A stretch of DNA of 64,000 bases from Solirubrobacteraceae bacterium (GCA_035485715.1 DATHNT010000013.1:26448-90447); one strand, 5' to 3'. Counted from the first letter of the stretch, positions 11,868 through 32,703 are shown. The notes: generated by a model not told the origin, from the letters alone. A program made the numbers and translations.

Positions 11868-12017
11868 GGCCTGCTCGGGACAGAGGGCCGGACAGGCTTA
11901 CGCGTGAAGGAGCGCCTCACAGGTTTGCTCGCGAGGGCCTGCTCGGGACAGAGGCCGGGACAGGCTCACGCGTGAAGGAGCGCCTCACAGGTTTGCTCGC
12001 GACAGAGGCTCACGCGT
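11868..12017. repeat. 68-bp tandem repeat x2 plus partial third copy (intergenic)
   Basis: Units at 11868-11935 and 11936-12003 are 64/68 identical; partial AGAGGCTCACGCGT follows. Confidence 0.9.
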
Positions 12018-24795: not shown

Positions 24796-24904
24796 CCCGC
24801 GGCTCCTTCTGGTTCGTTTGGGCTGGGAGCACCCAGAGGCCCAGTAGGCAGGCACTCCCGATGCGGCGAAGTATGGCGGGCGCGTCGGGCGACACCGCCG
24901 TCGC

Positions 24905-25486
24905 CTATTGGACGGTGAGCTTGCCTTCCATGCCCGCCTGTCGATGACCAGGAACCGAGCAGTAGAAGACGTATGTGCCAGGCTTCAGATTCAACGTGAG
25001 CGTCCTCGCGCCGCCCTGGAAGGTGGGCGTCGCTGTCAGCACCGTGGTGCCCTGGGCGATCGTCATGTTGTGCATCAGCGGAGACATGTTCTTGAAATCG
25101 ATCGTGACCTTGCCGGCTCTGGCCGAAAGATTTTTCGTGGTGTAGCGCAGCTGGCCTTCGGGATCGGCTTCATCGGTCAGCGAGGAGGTGCCCGAGCCGG
25201 AGGCGGCTTCGCGGCCCGTCTGGGTGATCGGCGCGATCGTCGCCTTGGCGCTCGAGCCACCCGACGTGGCAACCGCCATGGAGACGGTAGCCAGTACGAG
25301 CACGGCCGATATCGCCATCACGGCGCGCTGGCCGCCCAACGAGCTCGGGAAGTTCGGGTTGCGCCGCCCCAAGACAACCGATACGAACAGTGCCCAGGCA
25401 ACGAGCAGACCGCCGGCGATGTAGTACGGCACCTTGCTCTTCTCGGCTGCAAGCACAGGCCCGAAGTGTGCTATTGCTGCAAACAT
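24905..25486 (-). CDS. Membrane-anchored plastocyanin/azurin-like cupredoxin
   Basis: Two hydrophobic N-terminal segments, then HNM and YCSVPGHRQAGM type-1 Cu ligands. Confidence 0.85.
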   Translation of the reverse strand: MFAAIAHFGPVLAAEKSKVPYYIAGGLLVAWALFVSVVLGRRNPNFPSSLGGQRAVMAISAVLVLATVSMAVATSGGSSAKATIAPITQTGREAASGSGTSSLTDEADPEGQLRYTTKNLSARAGKVTIDFKNMSPLMHNMTIAQGTTVLTATPTFQGGARTLTLNLKPGTYVFYCSVPGHRQAGMEGKLTVQ

Positions 25487-25534
25487 CCCGCCTGCGAGCG
25501 TAACCGATCCTCCGGTGGGTATGCTCTCTCGCCG

Positions 25535-26416
25535 ATGACCGACGCGGTGCGTACCCCGGACGAGCTGCTTGAAGGTCTCCCCGACTTTCCCTTCGAGGCG
25601 CACTATCGCGAGCACGACGGGCTGCGCCTCGCCCACGTTGACGAGGGTGAGGGCGCTCCGGTGCTTTTCATGCACGGCGAGCCCACCTGGTCGTTTCTGT
25701 GGCGCAAGGTGCTCGCGCCGGTCAGAGACGCCGGCTTCCGCTGCATCGCGCCCGACCTGCCCGGCTTCGGACGCTCGGATAAGCCGATCGACATCGACTG
25801 GTACTCCTACGACCGTCACGTGGCGGCAGTCGCTGCCCTGATCGAGGAGTTGGACGTGCGCAAAGCCACCATGGTCGTGCACGACCAGGGCGGTCCGATC
25901 GGGCTGCGCCTGGCGGTCGAGCATCCCGAGCGCTTCGAGCGGCTGGTGATCCTCGACACCGGACTGTTCACCGGCCACCAGAAGATGAGCGAGGCGTGGA
26001 CTGCATTTCGAGACTTTGTGGAGCGCACCGAGGACCTGCCGGTCGGCTTCCTTGTGCGGGGCGCCTGCAAGAACGATCCTGGCGACGAGGTGATCGCCGC
26101 CTATGAGGCGCCCTACCCGAGCGTCGCGTCCAAGGCGGGGGCGCGAGCCTTCCCGTTGATGATCCCGCATGAGCCTGACGCGCCGGGCGCCGCCGCCGGC
26201 CGGCGCGTGCTCGAGGCGCTCAAAGACGACAAGCGTCCGACGCTGATGTTGTGGGCCGACTCCGACCCGGTGCTACCGCTCGCCACCGGCGAGCGCTTCG
26301 CCGAGGCGATCGGTCGTGAGAAGCCACGCGTGATCGAGAACGCCTCGCACTTCCTACAGGAGGACGCGGGGCCCGAGATCGGCCGTCAGATCGCCGAGTG
26401 GCTCACGGCTGGGTGA
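25535..26416 (+). CDS. Haloalkane-dehalogenase-like alpha/beta hydrolase
   Basis: MTDAVRTPDE, HGEPTWSFLWR, PDLPGFGRSDKP, VHDQGG, SHFLQED. Confidence 0.85.
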   Translation: MTDAVRTPDELLEGLPDFPFEAHYREHDGLRLAHVDEGEGAPVLFMHGEPTWSFLWRKVLAPVRDAGFRCIAPDLPGFGRSDKPIDIDWYSYDRHVAAVAALIEELDVRKATMVVHDQGGPIGLRLAVEHPERFERLVILDTGLFTGHQKMSEAWTAFRDFVERTEDLPVGFLVRGACKNDPGDEVIAAYEAPYPSVASKAGARAFPLMIPHEPDAPGAAAGRRVLEALKDDKRPTLMLWADSDPVLPLATGERFAEAIGREKPRVIENASHFLQEDAGPEIGRQIAEWLTAG

Positions 26417-26427
26417 TCGCAAATGGC

Positions 26428-26465
26428 ATGCCCCCACGCGCGCGCCGGGGGCATCGCCCTTTTTC
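26428..26465 (+). terminator. Intrinsic terminator
   Basis: ATGCCCCC-N11-GGGGGCAT followed by CGCCCTTTTTC. Confidence 0.7.
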
Positions 26466-26509
26466 TTAGCCGACCCTGACTCAGCAGTCTCAGCCCCAGC
26501 GTCTCTTCC

Positions 26510-27406
26510 TCAACTGCCTCCGTCAGTCAACTGCACCTTCTCCGGCGCGGGAGCCAAGGCCGGCTCGGACTTGGAGGCGCGCAGTTCGTAGCCGCGGCGT
26601 GCGCTCGCGTCGGCCCCGGCCAGCACCTGGTCTGCCTTCAGCGCACGTGCCATCCCCTCCGAGAGTCGTCGCGGCAGCAGCACCCCCAGCGTGCTCGTGC
26701 GCTTGGCAGACTTCGGCACCCACACTTCCACACGGCCAGTCTGCAGAGCCTCGACGATCGCGTCGGCCACTTCGGTCGGCTGCAGTACCTTCATCCCGCG
26801 CGCCTGGCCAAGCCCGCCACCCAGTTCGGTGTTGACGACGAACGGCATCACGTAGCTGATGTCGACGTTGGCCTTCATCAAGCGCAACTCGCCGCGCACC
26901 GCCTCGCTGAGGCCGACGACCGCGTGCTTGGTCGCCGAGTAGGTGGCGCCGCCGGGCGCCCCGAACTTGCCGGCCTGGGAGGAGATGTTGACGATGTGGC
27001 CACGGTCGCGCGGGACCATCCGCTCCATGGCAAGCTTCGTCCCCAGGATCACCCCGTGCAGGTTGATGTCGACCATGCGCCGTGCGGTGAGGTCGTCCTC
27101 GTCGATGAAGCGCCCGATCGGCATGATGCCGGCGTTGTTGACGAGCACGTCGATCGGACCCAGCTGCTCTTCGGCCCTGTCGAGGAACGCGGCGAACGAC
27201 GCGCGATCGGTCACGTCGAGCGCCAGCGCCACGGTGCTGGGCCCGAGTTCCTTCGCGGTCTCCTGGGCAGCGGCAAGGTCGACGTCGCCGACCGCCACCT
27301 TCATTCCCTGGCGCAGGAGCGCCCGCGCGGTCGCCTTGCCGATCCCGCGCGCCGAGCCGGTGATCGCCGCGGTCTGGCCGGCGAGGATACGGGGCTGCTT
27401 GGCCAT
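26510..27406 (-). CDS. Short-chain dehydrogenase/reductase
   Basis: TGSARGIG, VNNAGIM, YSATK; RBS AGGAGG. Confidence 0.92.
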   Translation of the reverse strand: MAKQPRILAGQTAAITGSARGIGKATARALLRQGMKVAVGDVDLAAAQETAKELGPSTVALALDVTDRASFAAFLDRAEEQLGPIDVLVNNAGIMPIGRFIDEDDLTARRMVDINLHGVILGTKLAMERMVPRDRGHIVNISSQAGKFGAPGGATYSATKHAVVGLSEAVRGELRLMKANVDISYVMPFVVNTELGGGLGQARGMKVLQPTEVADAIVEALQTGRVEVWVPKSAKRTSTLGVLLPRRLSEGMARALKADQVLAGADASARRGYELRASKSEPALAPAPEKVQLTDGGS

Positions 27407-27451
27407 GCTGTCTCCTCCTGAAAATTGGTTGTGCAGCCAAAGCTAGCGCGC

Positions 27452-27707
27452 AAACGAAAACACCGCATCTTCCGGGGTCGTGCGGGGTTCTACGTGCAGA
27501 CCATCCCATCAGGCCTGTGGATGGTCCCGGAGGGGGGCCGGACCCGGACGATCCACGGCTTCGTCCGGGTCCGCGTATCGGACGTCACGCGGGGTGGGGG
27601 GGCCCGCGAGACGCCCTTCGATGCTCCGCTGACCCCCCGTTGACCGCTGCTGGTTCGGGACGGGTCGTGGGCATAGCCCAAACTCCCGTGCACGCAAAGG
27701 GGGTGTA
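27452..27707 (-). ncRNA. Structured ncRNA candidate with two C-run loops (6C-like)
   Basis: TATGTT -10 (27714-27719); several stacked hairpins, including C7- and C6-loop stems; U-rich 3' end. No credible ORF. Confidence 0.5.
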
Positions 27708-27785
27708 TTTCTGAACATACGTATCGTGGAATCGGAACAGACTGAGCCGCGGGCGGTACACACCCCGCCGCGCTAGGCTTCAACG

Positions 27786-28703
27786 GTGGCGTCGTTTCTC
27801 TTCCATCACCAGCGCATCGCCTACACGGAGTTCGGTGGAGGCCCAGCGGAGCTGAAGAGCGACGGTACGCGTGGCAAGACACCACGACGGGCCAAGGCCG
27901 CCAAGCGGCCCGTGATTCTCGTGCACGGCTTGCTGCTCTCCCAGAAGATGCACAAGCCGCTTGCCAAAGAGCTGGCGGCGCGCGGCAACCGTGTGATCAC
28001 GGTCGATCTGCTCGGCCACGGCGAATCCGATCGTCCCCGCGACATGTGGCGCTATTCGATGCACTCCTTCGCCGAGCAGCTCGTGGCCTTGATGGATCAT
28101 CTGGAGATCGGAGAGGCGGTCGTGATGGGCACTTCGCTCGGCGCAAACGCCGCGCTTCAGGTGGCCGCAACCGCGCCGGAGAGGCTGCGCGGGATGGTCA
28201 TCGAGATGCCGGTGCTCGACAACGGGCTGCTCTCCAGCGCCTTGACCTTCACTCCTATCCTGGTGGCGCTCACTTTCGGCGAGCCGCTGATGAAGCTTGT
28301 CGCGCGCGGCACCCGTGCGGTGCCGCGCCGGCTACTGCCCTACTACGGCAACGTGATCCTCGACCTCGTGCGCCAAGAGCCCGGTCCAGGCGGCGCGCTG
28401 TTGCAAGGTCTCTTCTTCGGGCGCATCGCGCCCCACCGAAACGAACGGCGCACCTTCAAGACGCCCACGCTCGTGCTCGGGCACCGGCGCGACCCCGTTC
28501 ATCCCTTCTCAGACGCGGGAATGCTGGCCGCGGAGTTGCCCGATGCCCGCCTGATCGAAGCAGACTCGCTCGTCGAGTTGCGCCTGCGCCCAGAACGGCT
28601 TACAGACGAGATCGCCGGCTTCCTCGACGAGGTGTGGACTACAAAGCCGCGCCGCGCCAGGTCGACGCGCAGCACACGAGCGAAACGCGTCTCCTCACCC
28701 TGA
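27786..28703 (+). CDS. Alpha/beta hydrolase
   Basis: LVHGLL, VDLLGHGES, GTSLG nucleophile elbow. TAGGCT 6 nt upstream of the GTG. Confidence 0.88.
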   Translation: MASFLFHHQRIAYTEFGGGPAELKSDGTRGKTPRRAKAAKRPVILVHGLLLSQKMHKPLAKELAARGNRVITVDLLGHGESDRPRDMWRYSMHSFAEQLVALMDHLEIGEAVVMGTSLGANAALQVAATAPERLRGMVIEMPVLDNGLLSSALTFTPILVALTFGEPLMKLVARGTRAVPRRLLPYYGNVILDLVRQEPGPGGALLQGLFFGRIAPHRNERRTFKTPTLVLGHRRDPVHPFSDAGMLAAELPDARLIEADSLVELRLRPERLTDEIAGFLDEVWTTKPRRARSTRSTRAKRVSSP

Positions 28704-28710
28704 CCCGCCG

Positions 28711-28822
28711 CCCTGACGGTCGGGGGGCAAGCCAGACAAGGACGCACCGACCGCCGACCGCCGTGTGCTTCAGCACACAAGGAGGGAGGACGCCGTATGG
28801 CGCCGCTCCCCGACCGTCAGGG
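28711..28822. repeat. 112-bp element with perfect 15-bp terminal inverted repeats
   Basis: CCCTGACGGTCGGGG (28711-28725) and CCCCGACCGTCAGGG (28808-28822), with inner hairpins GTGTGCT-TC-AGCACAC and CGCC-GTAT-GGCG; lies between convergent genes. Confidence 0.8.
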
Positions 28823-28824
28823 TC

Positions 28825-29940
28825 TTACTTCGGCGGGAAGAGTTCGAATTCGTTGATGGAGACGCTGCCCGGGTTCGCGGCTGTCGAGGTAGCCGGGGCC
28901 TTGGCCAGCCACAGCAGGATGTAGCGGTAGCCCTTGCCTTTGGTCTTCAACTTGAGCGTGGTGCTTTTCTTCTTCAAGACTTTCAGCCCGACGATGCGAG
29001 CCCAGGCCGGATCGGAGATCGACGCCGGCGGCGTACTGCCGTTCGTTCCATAGACTTCCACGGTGATTCCCGTGGTCGTCGTCTTGACGACAGTGCTTCC
29101 CAGCTTCTGCGGGTTCTTCAGGTCGAGCAGCAGTCCCTCGGCCATCTTGGGAGCGTTTTCGGTCTGTACCTGGGCCGTCCAAGCGGTGCTCGCTTCCCCG
29201 TCGATCGCGAGGCTGGGATCGCCGAACAGCGAAGGCGGGTAGTTGTAAGGGTTGTAGACGCTGGCCGCGTTCGTGTCGAGCAGGATCGGGCTCGGCGCTT
29301 CGGATTCGGCGCCTGTGTTCGTTTCGGAGCTGCTTGTTTCTTTGCTTTCGCTCGTGCTTTTCGTCGGTTCGCTGGTGGTTTTGGTCGGTTCGCTCGTGGT
29401 ATCGGTGGTTTTCGTTTCGGGCGGGAACAGCGCGTTGTTGGCTTCGCTGTCCGCGCCGCTCGTCGATTTGGGCGTCGGCGTTTGCAGAGGGATCTTCGGC
29501 GGGGTGGCTTTGACCGTCGTGGGCGTGCCCGGAACCGGGGTGGCACCAGGAGTCGAGGCGGCGCCCGGAGTCGTCGGCGTGGTTGTGGCGGGCACACCCG
29601 CTGCCGGAGTTTTTATGACCAGTGCCACAGCCGAGGACTTCGGCTTGGTCTTGTTCAATGCTGCGTACGCAGCCACCGCAGCGCCGCAAACGAGCACCGC
29701 TGTCGCCCCAAGGATCGCGATGCCCGTGCGCCAGCCCGGACCGCCGCCGAAAAGGCGTGGCTTGGCTGTGCCGCACTGCAGACACCAGTCCTGGCCCTCC
29801 TGCATCGGCAGCCCACATTTCGAGCACTGATAAGGCGCAGGAGCCGGGTCGGGCTGGGACCCGTTTGGGTCGATACCATTGGACTTCGCCGACTGCTCCG
29901 GCGAGCCCTCAGACCCTGGCTTCGTAAGCAAGGAACTCAC
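28825..29940 (-). CDS. Zinc-ribbon + TM + Thr/Pro/Ser linker + discoidin (F5/8)-like extracellular domain protein
   Basis: CSKC-x10-CLQC, one TM helix, low-complexity linker; C-terminus AIDG..TAW...GLLLDL...RYILLW..SINEFEL. Confidence 0.75.
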   Translation of the reverse strand: MSSLLTKPGSEGSPEQSAKSNGIDPNGSQPDPAPAPYQCSKCGLPMQEGQDWCLQCGTAKPRLFGGGPGWRTGIAILGATAVLVCGAAVAAYAALNKTKPKSSAVALVIKTPAAGVPATTTPTTPGAASTPGATPVPGTPTTVKATPPKIPLQTPTPKSTSGADSEANNALFPPETKTTDTTSEPTKTTSEPTKSTSESKETSSSETNTGAESEAPSPILLDTNAASVYNPYNYPPSLFGDPSLAIDGEASTAWTAQVQTENAPKMAEGLLLDLKNPQKLGSTVVKTTTTGITVEVYGTNGSTPPASISDPAWARIVGLKVLKKKSTTLKLKTKGKGYRYILLWLAKAPATSTAANPGSVSINEFELFPPK

Positions 29941-29969
29941 TATCGACCATTCTTACATCTCAGAGCCGA

Positions 29970-30950
29970 TCAACCTGCCGGCAGGATCTGTTTGTCGGTT
30001 GGCTGCATCCGCTCGTCCAGCTCCAGCTGCCAGTAGTAGCGCGTGAATGTGACCTCACGGCGATACTCGCCGACGTGCGAGGGCACGTGCTCGCCGGCGG
30101 CCATGCGCACGATCAGCTCGGGGTAGGAGCGGCCGGACAGGGCTGCCAACGCCGGCGCAGGGAAAGCTCCGCCGAAGCGCGTGTTGACATCGGTGATGCG
30201 CACGCCCAACTCCGGGTCGCGGAACACCTGGATCGTGGCGGGACCGCGCACCGCGAGCGCCTGCATCGCACTGCAACCCAACTCGACGAGCTCGGGGTCG
30301 TCGATCACGGTGCCCTTGATCGACTCGCCGCCACGCGACTCGAGCATCGTGCGCGGAATCGCGTTCAGGCAACGCCCATCCAGATCGCCGAGACAGTCGA
30401 TCGAGAGCTCCGGGCCTCCCATTGCCTGCTGCACCATAGTGGGCTCATCCACGTAGTCCACAAAGAAGCGAGCCTGCTCCGGGCTGTGCGCGAGATGGAT
30501 CGAGCGTGCGCCGGAGCCCTTCCGCGGCTTGACCATGACCGGATAGTGGAGGGCATCGAGGTCGTCATCGGGCAGCACCGTCGGAGGCGACGGCAGGCCG
30601 AGGCGCTCGAGCAGCAAATGCGCCTCGTACTTGTCGTAGGTGGCATGCGCCACCTGCGAGGAGGGGACGAGCGCCGGAAGCAGGCCCTGCTCACGCGCCA
30701 GCGCGAGCGTCTCGATGTCGAGGTCTGTCAGCGGCAGCACTGCGCCTACTCCGTATTCGGCGCATAGGCGTGCAAGCTCGGGCACATAGCCCGGGTCTGC
30801 GATCGGTGGCGGACTGACACGCACCTGCGCCGCGTACCGAGCAGGAGCCAGCGGGTTTGGGTCGACCGCTACCACTGTCGTAAGAGCGGCGAAGCAGGAA
30901 ACGATGTCGTAGCGCTTGCCGACGCCCGTGAGCATGATGCTCGGGGTCAT
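29970..30950 (-). CDS. ATP-grasp domain protein (polysaccharide-locus type)
   Basis: DKYEAH, YPVMVKPRKGSGA, QQAMGGPELSID, DVNTRFGGAFP. ATGA overlap with upstream gene. Confidence 0.88.
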   Translation of the reverse strand: MTPSIMLTGVGKRYDIVSCFAALTTVVAVDPNPLAPARYAAQVRVSPPPIADPGYVPELARLCAEYGVGAVLPLTDLDIETLALAREQGLLPALVPSSQVAHATYDKYEAHLLLERLGLPSPPTVLPDDDLDALHYPVMVKPRKGSGARSIHLAHSPEQARFFVDYVDEPTMVQQAMGGPELSIDCLGDLDGRCLNAIPRTMLESRGGESIKGTVIDDPELVELGCSAMQALAVRGPATIQVFRDPELGVRITDVNTRFGGAFPAPALAALSGRSYPELIVRMAAGEHVPSHVGEYRREVTFTRYYWQLELDERMQPTDKQILPAG

Positions 30951-31531
30951 TCCCATCCTCCCGTCTGGCCCTTGTAGAGACCCGAGCCACCGAGCACGAT
31001 CGCTACGGTGCGCCACAGGATACGTGCGTCGAGCGCGAGCGATCGGTGTTCGATGTAGTAGAGGTCGAGCTCGATGCGCTCGCTCCAGGGCAGCGCGGCA
31101 CGGCCGTTGACCTGGGCCCAGCCGGTGATGCCAGGCCTGATCGCAAGCCGGCCGCGCTGGCGCTCTGTGTAGCGGGCCACCTGCACCGGGATCGTTGGGC
31201 GCGGGCCGATGAACGACAGCTCGCCGCGCACCACGCCCAGCAGGTTGGGCAGCTCATCCAGCGAAGTCCGACGCAAGAGGGCCCCAACGCGCGTGACTCG
31301 AGGGTCGTTCTCGTTGATCGCTAGGCCCGCGCCCACGTGCTCGGCACCATCGACCATCGTGCGCAGCTTGAGCAGGTCGAACTCTTGACCGTCCTTGCCG
31401 ACGCGCCGTTGACGGTAGATCGGGTGCCCGCGCGACTCCAGCCTGATGGCGAGCATCGCTACCGCGATCACGGGCGCGGCCACGATCAGCGCGAGCGTGC
31501 CGAGGACGATGTCGATCGTGCGTCGGATCAT
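30947..31531 (-). CDS. Bacterial sugar transferase (polyprenyl-phosphate phosphoglycosyl transferase, PglC/WcaJ C-domain)
   Basis: RRTIDI, KLRTM, NDPRVT, RTSLDELP, SFIGPRP, PGITGWAQVNGR, DLYYI. Confidence 0.93.
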   Translation of the reverse strand: MIRRTIDIVLGTLALIVAAPVIAVAMLAIRLESRGHPIYRQRRVGKDGQEFDLLKLRTMVDGAEHVGAGLAINENDPRVTRVGALLRRTSLDELPNLLGVVRGELSFIGPRPTIPVQVARYTERQRGRLAIRPGITGWAQVNGRAALPWSERIELDLYYIEHRSLALDARILWRTVAIVLGGSGLYKGQTGGWE

Positions 31532-32703
31532 CTGGTCCCCTCCGCCGCTTCCCACGAAGGGGCAGTGCCATGGCGTAGCCAATCCCACAGGCCGGCGGCG
31601 GCGGCGAGCGTCGTGAGGAAGTAGTAGCGCGCGATCAAAAGGGGCCGCACACGTATCAAACCGCCAATCCCGGCGGAGGCGCCGAGGACGACCTGGAGGA
31701 TAAGGGTGATTTCATAGACGCCTCTGGTCCCGCCCGCCACGAGCGCAATGTTGGCGAGGAAGGCAAAGACGTGCAAAAAAGGGGTCAGGTAGCGCAAAAG
31801 CCGGTGGGAGAAGATCATCCCGGCGTAGCCGAAGGTGTAGCCGTGCGGGGAAAGCATGCCACCGCGCAGGACGATCGGCCACGTGTGGCTCATCATGCGC
31901 CGCTTGCGCCGCCACTCGCCCTCGATCGAGGGGACCATCTTCTCGGTGGCACGGGCGCTCGACACGTATACGGCGCGCCAGCCGCGCTTGACCATGTTGA
32001 ACGGGAACGACAGGTCGTGGCCCATGATCGGATCGACCACGATGTAGGACTCGCGACGGGTCGCGTAGATGGCGCCGTTGCCGGCGGTAATCGACGACAG
32101 GCGCGACTCGCGCGCGCGCTGCGCCATCTCATAGCGCCAGTACACACCCTCCTGGTTGGTGGCCTGGGCGCCGTCTGCGCCCTGCACGAAGCGGACCTGT
32201 CCGCAGGCGTAGCCCACTTGCGGATCCGCGAACGCGGCCACGAGCTCTCCCAGTGCATCCGGCTCCCATTGGGAATTGGCGTCGGAGAAGGCGACGATCT
32301 CCCCGCTCGATCGCTCCACAGCCGTGTCCTGAGCGACGATCTTGCCAGCGCGCGGGAGCTCGAGTACGAGGTCGGCGCCTGCGTCGCTCGCATGCTTGGC
32401 AGTGGCGTCCGTGCAGCCGTCGCAGGCCACGATCACCTGCAGCAGCTCGCGCGGATAGTGCAGCGCGAGCGCATTGGCGACCTTGGCGCCGATCACTGCC
32501 TGCTCGTCGTGCGCGGCGACGATCAACGACACGCTTCGATTTGGAGGATTGGTTCGTGCCTCTTCCCCCACCGCGGCTTTTGGCGCTGGCGCGAACAAGC
32601 GGGCCAGCACAGCCAAGGCAAAGGCATAGCCCACCTGTGTCCACACGATCAGGACAGCCGAAGCCCAGAACACGATCTCGAGCGCTGTGCGCATGAACCG
32701 CAT
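31528..32703 (-). CDS. GT2 glycosyltransferase with TM helices
   Basis: [35 protein letters not shown]; TM at both ends. Confidence 0.9.

Follow-up and report, generated by a model that had tools for sequence, protein, structure and literature searches.

A conserved structured element of Solirubrobacteraceae that is probably the retained 3' end of a deleted gene

A conserved element of about 125 to 130 nt lies in a 379-nt intergenic region of a Solirubrobacteraceae genome, between a divergent pair of genes that encode an SDR-family oxidoreductase (minus strand) and an alpha/beta hydrolase (plus strand). The stretch of DNA that was analyzed, called the window here, is 64 kb long and has a G+C content of 66%. 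Based on the comparison with relatives, we think that positions 27456 to 27584, read on the plus strand, are probably the retained 3' end of a deleted gene (geneX), kept as an RNA module with a terminator-like hairpin, P1. The original prediction for 27452-27719, where the sequence that it quoted is indeed present, was an RNA of about 255 nt on the minus strand, possibly related to 6C or Ms1 RNA or else a new motif. A structured motif in this intergenic region is borne out, as it is conserved, apparently new, and without an Rfam match. The features are as follows, with the roman numerals of the original prediction kept for the hairpins.

26510-27406, minus strand: SDR-family oxidoreductase gene, PRK07825-like, with ATG at 27406 and the Shine-Dalgarno sequence AGGAGG at 27414-27419
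27440-27445, minus strand: TAGCTT, the -10 of the SDR gene (GCGCTAGNTT is kept across loci)
27456-27584, plus strand: conserved core element of about 125 to 130 nt (covariance model R1, 128 bits)
27463-27472, plus strand: box CCGCATCTTC, the old (T/S)-A-P-S codons of geneX, from geneX C termini of in-frame relatives
27473-27484, plus strand: variable 12-nt stretch, fixed in length and free in sequence (by identity), which holds the UGCGG arm
27485-27489, plus strand: conserved GGGTT block, the old Gly-Phe codons (by identity)
27499-27526, plus strand: helix P2 (hairpin v), GACCAUCC / GGAUGGUC (from the alignment)
27529-27537, plus strand: near-invariant purine junction, unpaired between P2 and P1, GGAGGGGGG in the window and GGAGAGGG in the consensus
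27539-27573, plus strand: helix P1 (hairpin iii), a G+C-rich stem of 11 to 13 bp with the near-invariant loop AUCCACGGCUU (from the alignment)
27580-27616, no strand assigned: hairpin ii, a second hairpin after P1 (14 loci), whose loop has a G-run on the plus strand and a C-run on the minus strand
27617-27773, no strand assigned: lineage-specific spacer outside the conserved element, from comparison with relatives
27774-27779, plus strand: TAGGCT, the hydrolase -10, 6 nt 5' of the GTG (comparison of 79 loci)
27786-28703, plus strand: alpha/beta-fold hydrolase gene, with a GTG start at 27786

The hydrolase/SDR pair is present in all 80 related genome loci that were retrieved via the SDR protein, all of them from Solirubrobacterales/Solirubrobacteraceae MAGs. 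A TANNNT hexamer stands 6 to 7 nt before the hydrolase start (GTG or ATG) in 74 of 79 loci, whether or not these have the element, and comparison of the 79 loci revealed no Shine-Dalgarno sequence upstream of this start. In actinobacteria, a TANNNT motif just before the start codon together with the lack of a Shine-Dalgarno sequence is the promoter arrangement of leaderless mRNAs. By this pattern, the hydrolase mRNA looks leaderless and looks to be transcribed from its own promoter. As the hydrolase -10 is located just before the start codon, the element is upstream of the hydrolase promoter and outside the hydrolase leader. The SDR gene also has its own -10, as was predicted, and this hexamer is conserved across loci (TAGCTT/TAGNTT). 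In one clade it adjoins the box of the element (CTAGCGCACCTTC), and in the same clade the SDR gene is leaderless too (TAGGTT, 7 nt, and ATG), which places the element outside the SDR mRNA as well. The gene order at 24900-31600 of the window that is common to loci L157 and L158 is cupredoxin-like, dehalogenase-like alpha/beta hydrolase, SDR, (geneX), and hydrolase. Further along this syntenic stretch are genes for a 371-aa protein with no Pfam match, an ATP-grasp enzyme with a PylC-like N-terminal domain, and a sugar transferase. ORFs of 50 to 131 aa overlap the intergenic sequence at 27425-27885 on both strands (for example, 27490-27885 on the minus strand); these are typical high-G+C artifacts, since every one of them is broken by indels across relatives. 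At 27114-27165, unrelated metagenome and metatranscriptome contigs pile up very deeply, with loose ends, onto about 45 nt within the SDR gene, which is probably the conserved NNAG/cofactor-binding motif common to many SDR paralogues.

BLAST and iterated nhmmer searches over the 80 loci limited wide conservation to the SDR-side part of the predicted RNA, at about 27461-27581, which takes in the UGCGG region as well as hairpins iii, iv, and v. Only the four or five nearest relatives align to the 5' 135 nt, which hold the 5' domain and hairpin ii. The conserved length is therefore about 125 nt instead of 255 nt, and the 5' domain is a lineage-specific insertion. With the R1 covariance model, the element is single copy in the window and occurs in 40 of the 80 genome loci, being absent from the other 40; it is known from 97 Solirubrobacterales loci. 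Searching with a degenerate pattern of the P1 loop region brought up 76 metagenome loci, and in this metagenome-wide scan full-element matches sit only at the hydrolase locus. Nineteen pattern matches outside the locus have only the 25-nt pattern in common, and their contexts are unrelated. An origin from a repeat or a MITE/REP sequence was rejected because there is no further copy in the window and these 19 matches are unrelated. Where the SDR gene is distant (L024, L012, and L070) or on the other side (L126), the element is still found with or after geneX or a hydrolase gene. L126 has a complete but divergent element (11876-12016) directly after the stop codon of a dehalogenase-like hydrolase gene, facing a convergent SDR gene. 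There, and also in L116, GGAGAGGG is changed to GGAAGAGGGG and the box to CAUCUUUC, a pair of changes that are possibly compensating insertions. In L101, L114, L118, L144, and L086, the box unit GCGCACCTTCNGCG (or its CAGCATCTTCCGGG form) is present in two to three tandem copies just upstream of the element.

The 5' half of the element can be traced to a gene that some relatives still have. In L024/L122, L012, L070, L142, and L143, an ORF of about 260 to 290 aa, geneX, lies between the SDR gene and the element, co-directional with the hydrolase gene. Its product, which is rich in Gly, Ser, Thr, and Asn and has an N-terminal hydrophobic segment, is a secreted protein, and Pfam and NCBIfam searches with geneX matched no family. 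The last 16 geneX codons are the 5' half of the element (T/S-A-P-S-A-L-x-Q-G-F-N-L/V-Q-V-I-C-stop), with ACC GCA CCT TCN for T-A-P-S, GGT TTC for G-F, and CAG GTC ATC TGC TAG for Q-V-I-C-stop; the box is read in frame in L024, L012, L070, L143, L142, and L157. In gene-bearing relatives, the Q-V-I codons make up the P2 5' arm and the stop codon is within the P2 loop. The 3' half of the element is the geneX 3' UTR, consisting of the P2 3' arm, unpaired GGAGAGGG, and P1. The geneX stop codon precedes P1 in L024, L012, L070, L142, L143, and L157, as does the dehalogenase stop codon in L126, and P1 may well be a terminator-like hairpin that closes the geneX transcript unit.

A database search with geneX yielded 1784 homologues. 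Among the 120 homologues listed, 119 end in ...APSAL.QGF[NH]LQV[IV]C or a close variant, and P0052 is apparently truncated. This indicates that the coding sequence is the source of the 5' half of the element and not the reverse. geneX represents a large uncharacterized family (L024:2049-2873, minus strand; L157:2501-3286; proteins P0001-P0120) with an almost invariant C terminus. In L157, geneX is intact and 65% identical to that of L024, the full element is at the gene end (98 bits), and the synteny is that of the window (cupredoxin, dehalogenase-like hydrolase, SDR, geneX, hydrolase, a 373-aa gene, and ATP-grasp). L158 has a more distant geneX orthologue (52% identical) with the same protein ending and no SDR or hydrolase gene. 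Downstream of this orthologue there is no P2 3' arm, no GGAGAGGG, and no P1, which suggests that the structured 3' UTR is confined to the clade with the hydrolase gene next in line.

In the window, geneX is lost. The box has a Pro-to-Ser change, 1 nt is deleted after GGGTTC (alignment column 36), and TGC-TAG (Cys-stop) is gone. Both signs of a gene remnant, syntenic homology to an intact gene and a disrupted frame, are thus present, and by its alignment the 5' half of the window element is a noncoding fossil of the geneX end. The deletion junctions are not alike between clades, and lineages with an intact gene do not group together in the hydrolase tree but are interspersed with remnant lineages. 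This suggests repeated geneX deletions, each sparing the same ~125 nt. Alternatively, recombination between alleles is possible. We rejected a small ORF in the remnant, given the frame-breaking indels (the column-36 gap and the variable P2) and the lack of a start codon after GGAGAGGG. The differing downstream frame and length between lineages also led us to reject readthrough or recoding at the UAG in the P2 loop.

Two of the predicted hairpins turned out to be conserved helices in an alignment of 97 sequences with 88 distinct rows. Hairpin iii is P1, a perfect 13-bp stem in the window. In the 88 distinct sequences it is 99% paired, with 43 G.U wobbles and five pairs that have double changes. 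Hairpin v is P2, which is conserved but optional. It is 88% paired, with double changes in five of its eight pairs and many U.G wobbles, and its length varies, being expanded in some loci and missing from L081, L144, and L101. For P1 and P2 together, 94.3% of the cells are paired and 10 pairs have changes on both sides; none of 500 shuffles was as good, and slid controls reached 29 to 57%. The cells that are not Watson-Crick comprise 104 G.U or U.G on the plus strand versus 25 A.C or C.A, so that selection acts on the plus strand, as RNA or as a single strand, and not on the minus strand that had been proposed. The orientation of the parent gene in relatives also points to the plus strand. The supposed C-runs are then G-runs. 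The blocks between the helices, CCGCAYCUUC, GGGUU, GGAGAGGG, and the P1 loop AUCCACGGCNU, are unpaired and near-invariant. Read on the minus strand, the GGAGAGGG junction is the C-run of hairpin iv. Two C-run loops had been taken as a hallmark of 6C RNA, but this is the single C-run in the conserved part, and it is an unpaired junction and not a loop. The overlapping hairpin iv itself, from which the switch-like overlaps had been predicted, can form in 72% of the cells, far below the values for P1 and P2.

P1 and P2 covary, and the other proposed helices are less well borne out. For the CCGCA/UGCGG stem, pairing is at 45%, no better than in controls, and covariation is absent. A short form of a helix for the 5' box (P0-short) is 59% paired; controls were as good, and a helix for this box was rejected. 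A CCC/GGG mini-hairpin that RNAalifold drew around GGAGA was rejected as well, since other clades do not keep it. Pairing of YCUUC with GAGGG, a helix that ViennaRNA draws in the window, is possible in 98.6% of the cells, a count that is uninformative because both sides are near-invariant and of low complexity and slid controls reach 80 to 91%. In 32 rows, a C-G pair of this helix is replaced by U.G. In 96% of the sequences, GGGUU is a complement of the P1 5' arm (GRCCC), which leaves room for an anti-terminator-like alternative. The tail of P1 is usually GCGUAU or GUGUGU, with UUUUAU in a few loci, and its identity is 0.5 to 0.8.

Identity was compared in four clades that have no member with geneX and also over all 35 gene-less genome loci. 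The values in the four clades were as follows.

Box: 0.91-1.00
12-nt variable stretch: 0.37-0.71
GGGTT: 0.90-1.00
P2 arms: 0.75-0.89
GGAGAGGG: 0.95-1.00
P1 stem: 0.89-0.94
P1 loop: 0.89-0.99
Linker: 0.43-0.66

All 35 gene-less genome loci show a like identity pattern. At fourfold-degenerate sites of the hydrolase gene, identity is 0.59 to 0.67 in the four clades and 0.55 to 0.67 over both comparisons. Because the blocks are at 0.89 to 1.00 compared to these values, selection is at the nucleotide level, and these identities indicate that purifying selection acts on nucleotides that are no longer coding. Such values in remnant-only clades are not those of neutral decay. Some of the block conservation could be a carry-over of coding constraint, if the gene losses were very recent and independent.

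The remainder of the predicted RNA has a different history. The stretch is structured, in that 281 nt of the minus strand fold at -131 kcal/mol (z = -3.18 compared to shuffles); the core alone (27456-27584) has a fold z of -0.9 on the minus strand and -1.4 on the plus strand. Hairpin ii is real (z = -3.9 on the minus strand and -2.3 on the plus strand), but its conservation is confined to about 14 close loci. It follows the core in 14 loci, including the gene-bearing L024, with one position that is A.A, U-A, or G.U, and is somewhat older than the rest of the spacer. The spacer contains the predicted closed 5' domain (27632-27705) and the TATGTT -10 (27714-27719, minus strand). The domain has a z of -1.1 on the minus strand, and its closing stem, ACCCCCUUUG / CAACGGGGGGU, rests on an 11-nt duplication found in the window only. 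Conservation of TATGTT and of the U-rich tail stops at the nearest relatives. In L015, the core is 98.8% identical and the ~200-nt spacer is wholly absent; in a soil metagenome contig, 27578 is joined straight to 27787; and in the nearest relatives the spacer shows tandem duplications and indels. From these comparisons, 27586-27773 appears to be a slippage-prone, lineage-specific insertion, preceded by the sub-clade hairpin ii. The distance from P1 to the hydrolase start is not conserved and ranges from 11 to ~260 nt, with P1 abutting the hydrolase -10 in L010 and L015. Between P1 and the hydrolase start of L030 there are three direct repeats of CCGGGTCCGAGTATNNGAC, which is the P1 3' arm plus tail; slippage or duplication seems to have occurred where the element ends.

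No Rfam family, 6C, Ms1, and 6S included, was matched in the whole window at the gathering threshold. At E <= 10, neither strand of 27300-27900 gave a 6C, Ms1, or 6S match, which speaks against an identity of the 6C/Ms1 type. Matches to mir-5592, Scr6106, Pab19, and Guanidine-III were dismissed as chance, all being far under their cut-offs. Consensus scans of both strands found no sigma-70-type promoter and no U-tract terminator. Among the papers searched, none deals with small RNAs of Solirubrobacterales. In three soil metatranscriptomes, no contig was found on 27372-27857, at a depth of only 2 to 20x at which small RNAs are easily lost; contigs were present on the hydrolase gene (100% identical, 27878-28252) and on the SDR gene. 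Public reads over the intergenic region yielded only DNA-like metagenome contigs. Across 86 loci, the 75 nt that precede the element have no plus-strand TANNNT -10. The lack of an upstream -10, of a clear P1 U-tract, and of intergenic contigs weakens a reading as an independent RNA.

Taken together, we regard the element as a retained 3'-end or terminator-type RNA module, possibly a short noncoding RNA. What we count as established in favor of this are the homology and synteny with geneX, the covarying P1 and P2, the plus-strand wobbles, the block conservation after gene loss, and the separate promoters of the neighboring genes; counted against it is that half of the related genomes do not have the element. 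It is possible, but we say so only tentatively, that the element is a free-standing, Solirubrobacteraceae-specific noncoding RNA of ~125 nt that has outlived its parent geneX, in which GGAGAGGG and CCACGGC would bind a protein or pyrimidine/C-rich RNAs. An alternative is a neutral pseudogene fossil, geneX and terminator DNA that is functionless today, which would fit the 3'-end homology, the broken frame, the multiple losses, the half of the relatives without the element, and the fact that neither transcript nor promoter was found. We consider this rather unlikely, as the blocks stand at 0.89 to 1.00 in remnant-only clades in which adjacent stretches are at 0.37 to 0.71 and fourfold sites have diverged, compensatory changes hold P1 and P2 paired, and several deletions that look independent all left this module in place.

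The position of the element, always upstream of the hydrolase gene and co-oriented with it, and its invariant, aptamer-like unpaired blocks are also what a plus-strand cis-regulatory leader (a riboswitch or attenuator) of the hydrolase gene would show; P1 would then be a regulated terminator and GGGUU, given its 96% complementarity to GRCCC, the anti-terminator strand on the P1 5' arm. Such a leader is unlikely, however, when the hydrolase gene has its own TANNNT 6 to 7 nt before the start and no Shine-Dalgarno sequence (74 of 79 loci), so that the element is not within a 5' leader. In addition, the spacer from P1 to the start (11 to ~260 nt) is unconserved, a convergent SDR gene lies between element and hydrolase in L126, and the 5' half of the element is former coding sequence. 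A role at the DNA level, as operator or architectural sites or as cruciform-forming repeats that organize the divergent SDR and hydrolase promoters, could account for a position between two promoters, with the box abutting the SDR -10 in one clade and P1 abutting the hydrolase -10 in L010 and L015. This seems very unlikely, since the asymmetry of the wobbles between strands and the long stems with their compensatory changes indicate a nucleic acid in single-stranded form, the distances to both promoters vary widely, and the form is kept behind geneX or a dehalogenase gene. Least probable of all, to the point of being hardly credible, is the independent minus-strand RNA of ~255 nt transcribed from TATGTT, with two C-run loops, either of the 6C/Ms1 type or a variant that would bind to G-rich sites in mRNAs. 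Its hairpins exist, the minus-strand fold has the z of -3.18 given above, hairpin ii folds slightly better on the minus strand with one G.U there, and a U-rich run follows UGCGG in the window. Nevertheless, 6C, Ms1, and 6S matches are absent even at E <= 10, the 5' 135 nt are missing from L015 and from a metagenome variant, the closing stem of the 5' domain is window specific, the wobble asymmetry contradicts the strand, the CCGCA/UGCGG "terminator" stem is 45% paired, and in one clade, where the element adjoins the SDR -10, the RNA would run into that promoter.

If the retained 3'-end module is the correct reading, its history and action may be pictured as follows. In the lineage of the window, geneX was presumably deleted down to ~125 nt and its frame was broken, and what remained would work as an RNA. 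P1 would end and/or stabilize transcripts that begin in the region of the divergent SDR/geneX promoters. The outcome would be a short, structured noncoding transcript, and the leaderless hydrolase promoter downstream would be shielded. Single-stranded GGAGAGGG and the CCACGGC loop could be recognition sites for a protein or another RNA. Possibly, GGAGAGGG pairs with the YCUUC box, which would close the junction around P2.

Intrinsic terminators and 3'-UTR stem-loops of actinobacteria include an "I-shaped" type that is poor in U-tracts. P1 resembles an intrinsic terminator in being a stable, G+C-rich hairpin of 11 to 13 bp with compensatory changes and in its location just after the stop region of a co-directional gene in gene-bearing relatives, though not in the window. 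Behind it comes a short, imperfect, U-containing tail (GCGUAU/GUGUGU), and the consensus scan finds no terminator here. We know of no ordinary terminators with loop or junction sequences as near-invariant as the P1 loop AUCCACGGCUU and the upstream unpaired GGAGAGGG are across ~90 diverged genomes, and, unlike terminators, the module persists where the terminated gene is gone. Small RNAs derived from 3' UTRs, described mainly in enterobacteria, share the terminator of their parent mRNA. The element is similar to these in having the end of a coding sequence, a structured 3' UTR, a terminator hairpin, and conserved single-stranded motifs as possible seeds, a likeness in DNA-level architecture. 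Unlike them, its parent gene is deleted in most lineages, and the RNA would need its own production. By analogy, the nearest counterpart of the element is the type of gene-end terminator or 3'-UTR stem-loop module from which 3'-UTR-derived small RNAs arise. Unusual features are the invariant loop and junction sequences and the survival of the module after deletion of its gene. As in gene remnants, there are syntenic homology to the last 16 codons, a frameshift, and a lost stop codon, but blocks and two helices are at an identity of 0.9 to 1.0 when neutral sites are at ~0.6.

According to Mai et al. 2019 (PMC6486639), 6C RNA has two stem-loops that display conserved cytosine runs in their loops. 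The element shares with 6C RNA a high-G+C actinobacterial setting, hairpins, and, if read on the minus strand, a C-run. In contrast to 6C RNA, its conserved run lies unpaired between P2 and P1 and is purine rich (GGAGAGGG) on the supported strand, the second C-run loop (hairpin ii) is restricted to a sub-clade of ~14 loci, and the element is ~125 nt long, derived from a gene end, and without a model match. It also differs from Ms1 and 6S RNA, as there is no long rod with a central bubble but two local hairpins and unpaired blocks over ~125 nt.

A tempting 6C misreading is corrected by the comparative data, which place the RNA on the opposite strand, halve its length, and give it a different origin. 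The locus offers a natural experiment in which one family shows three states: geneX intact with a structured 3' UTR, geneX deleted with the last ~50 coding nt and the 3' UTR retained by selection, and everything gone. If the element functions only as a terminator or insulator, formerly coding nucleotides are still held by RNA-level constraint. If it is transcribed, it would show the structure of a 3' UTR turning into an independent noncoding RNA, and it would be the first RNA motif for the largely uncultured Solirubrobacterales. Should the free-standing noncoding RNA be real, it would document a regulatory RNA that survives the repeated deletion of its parent gene.
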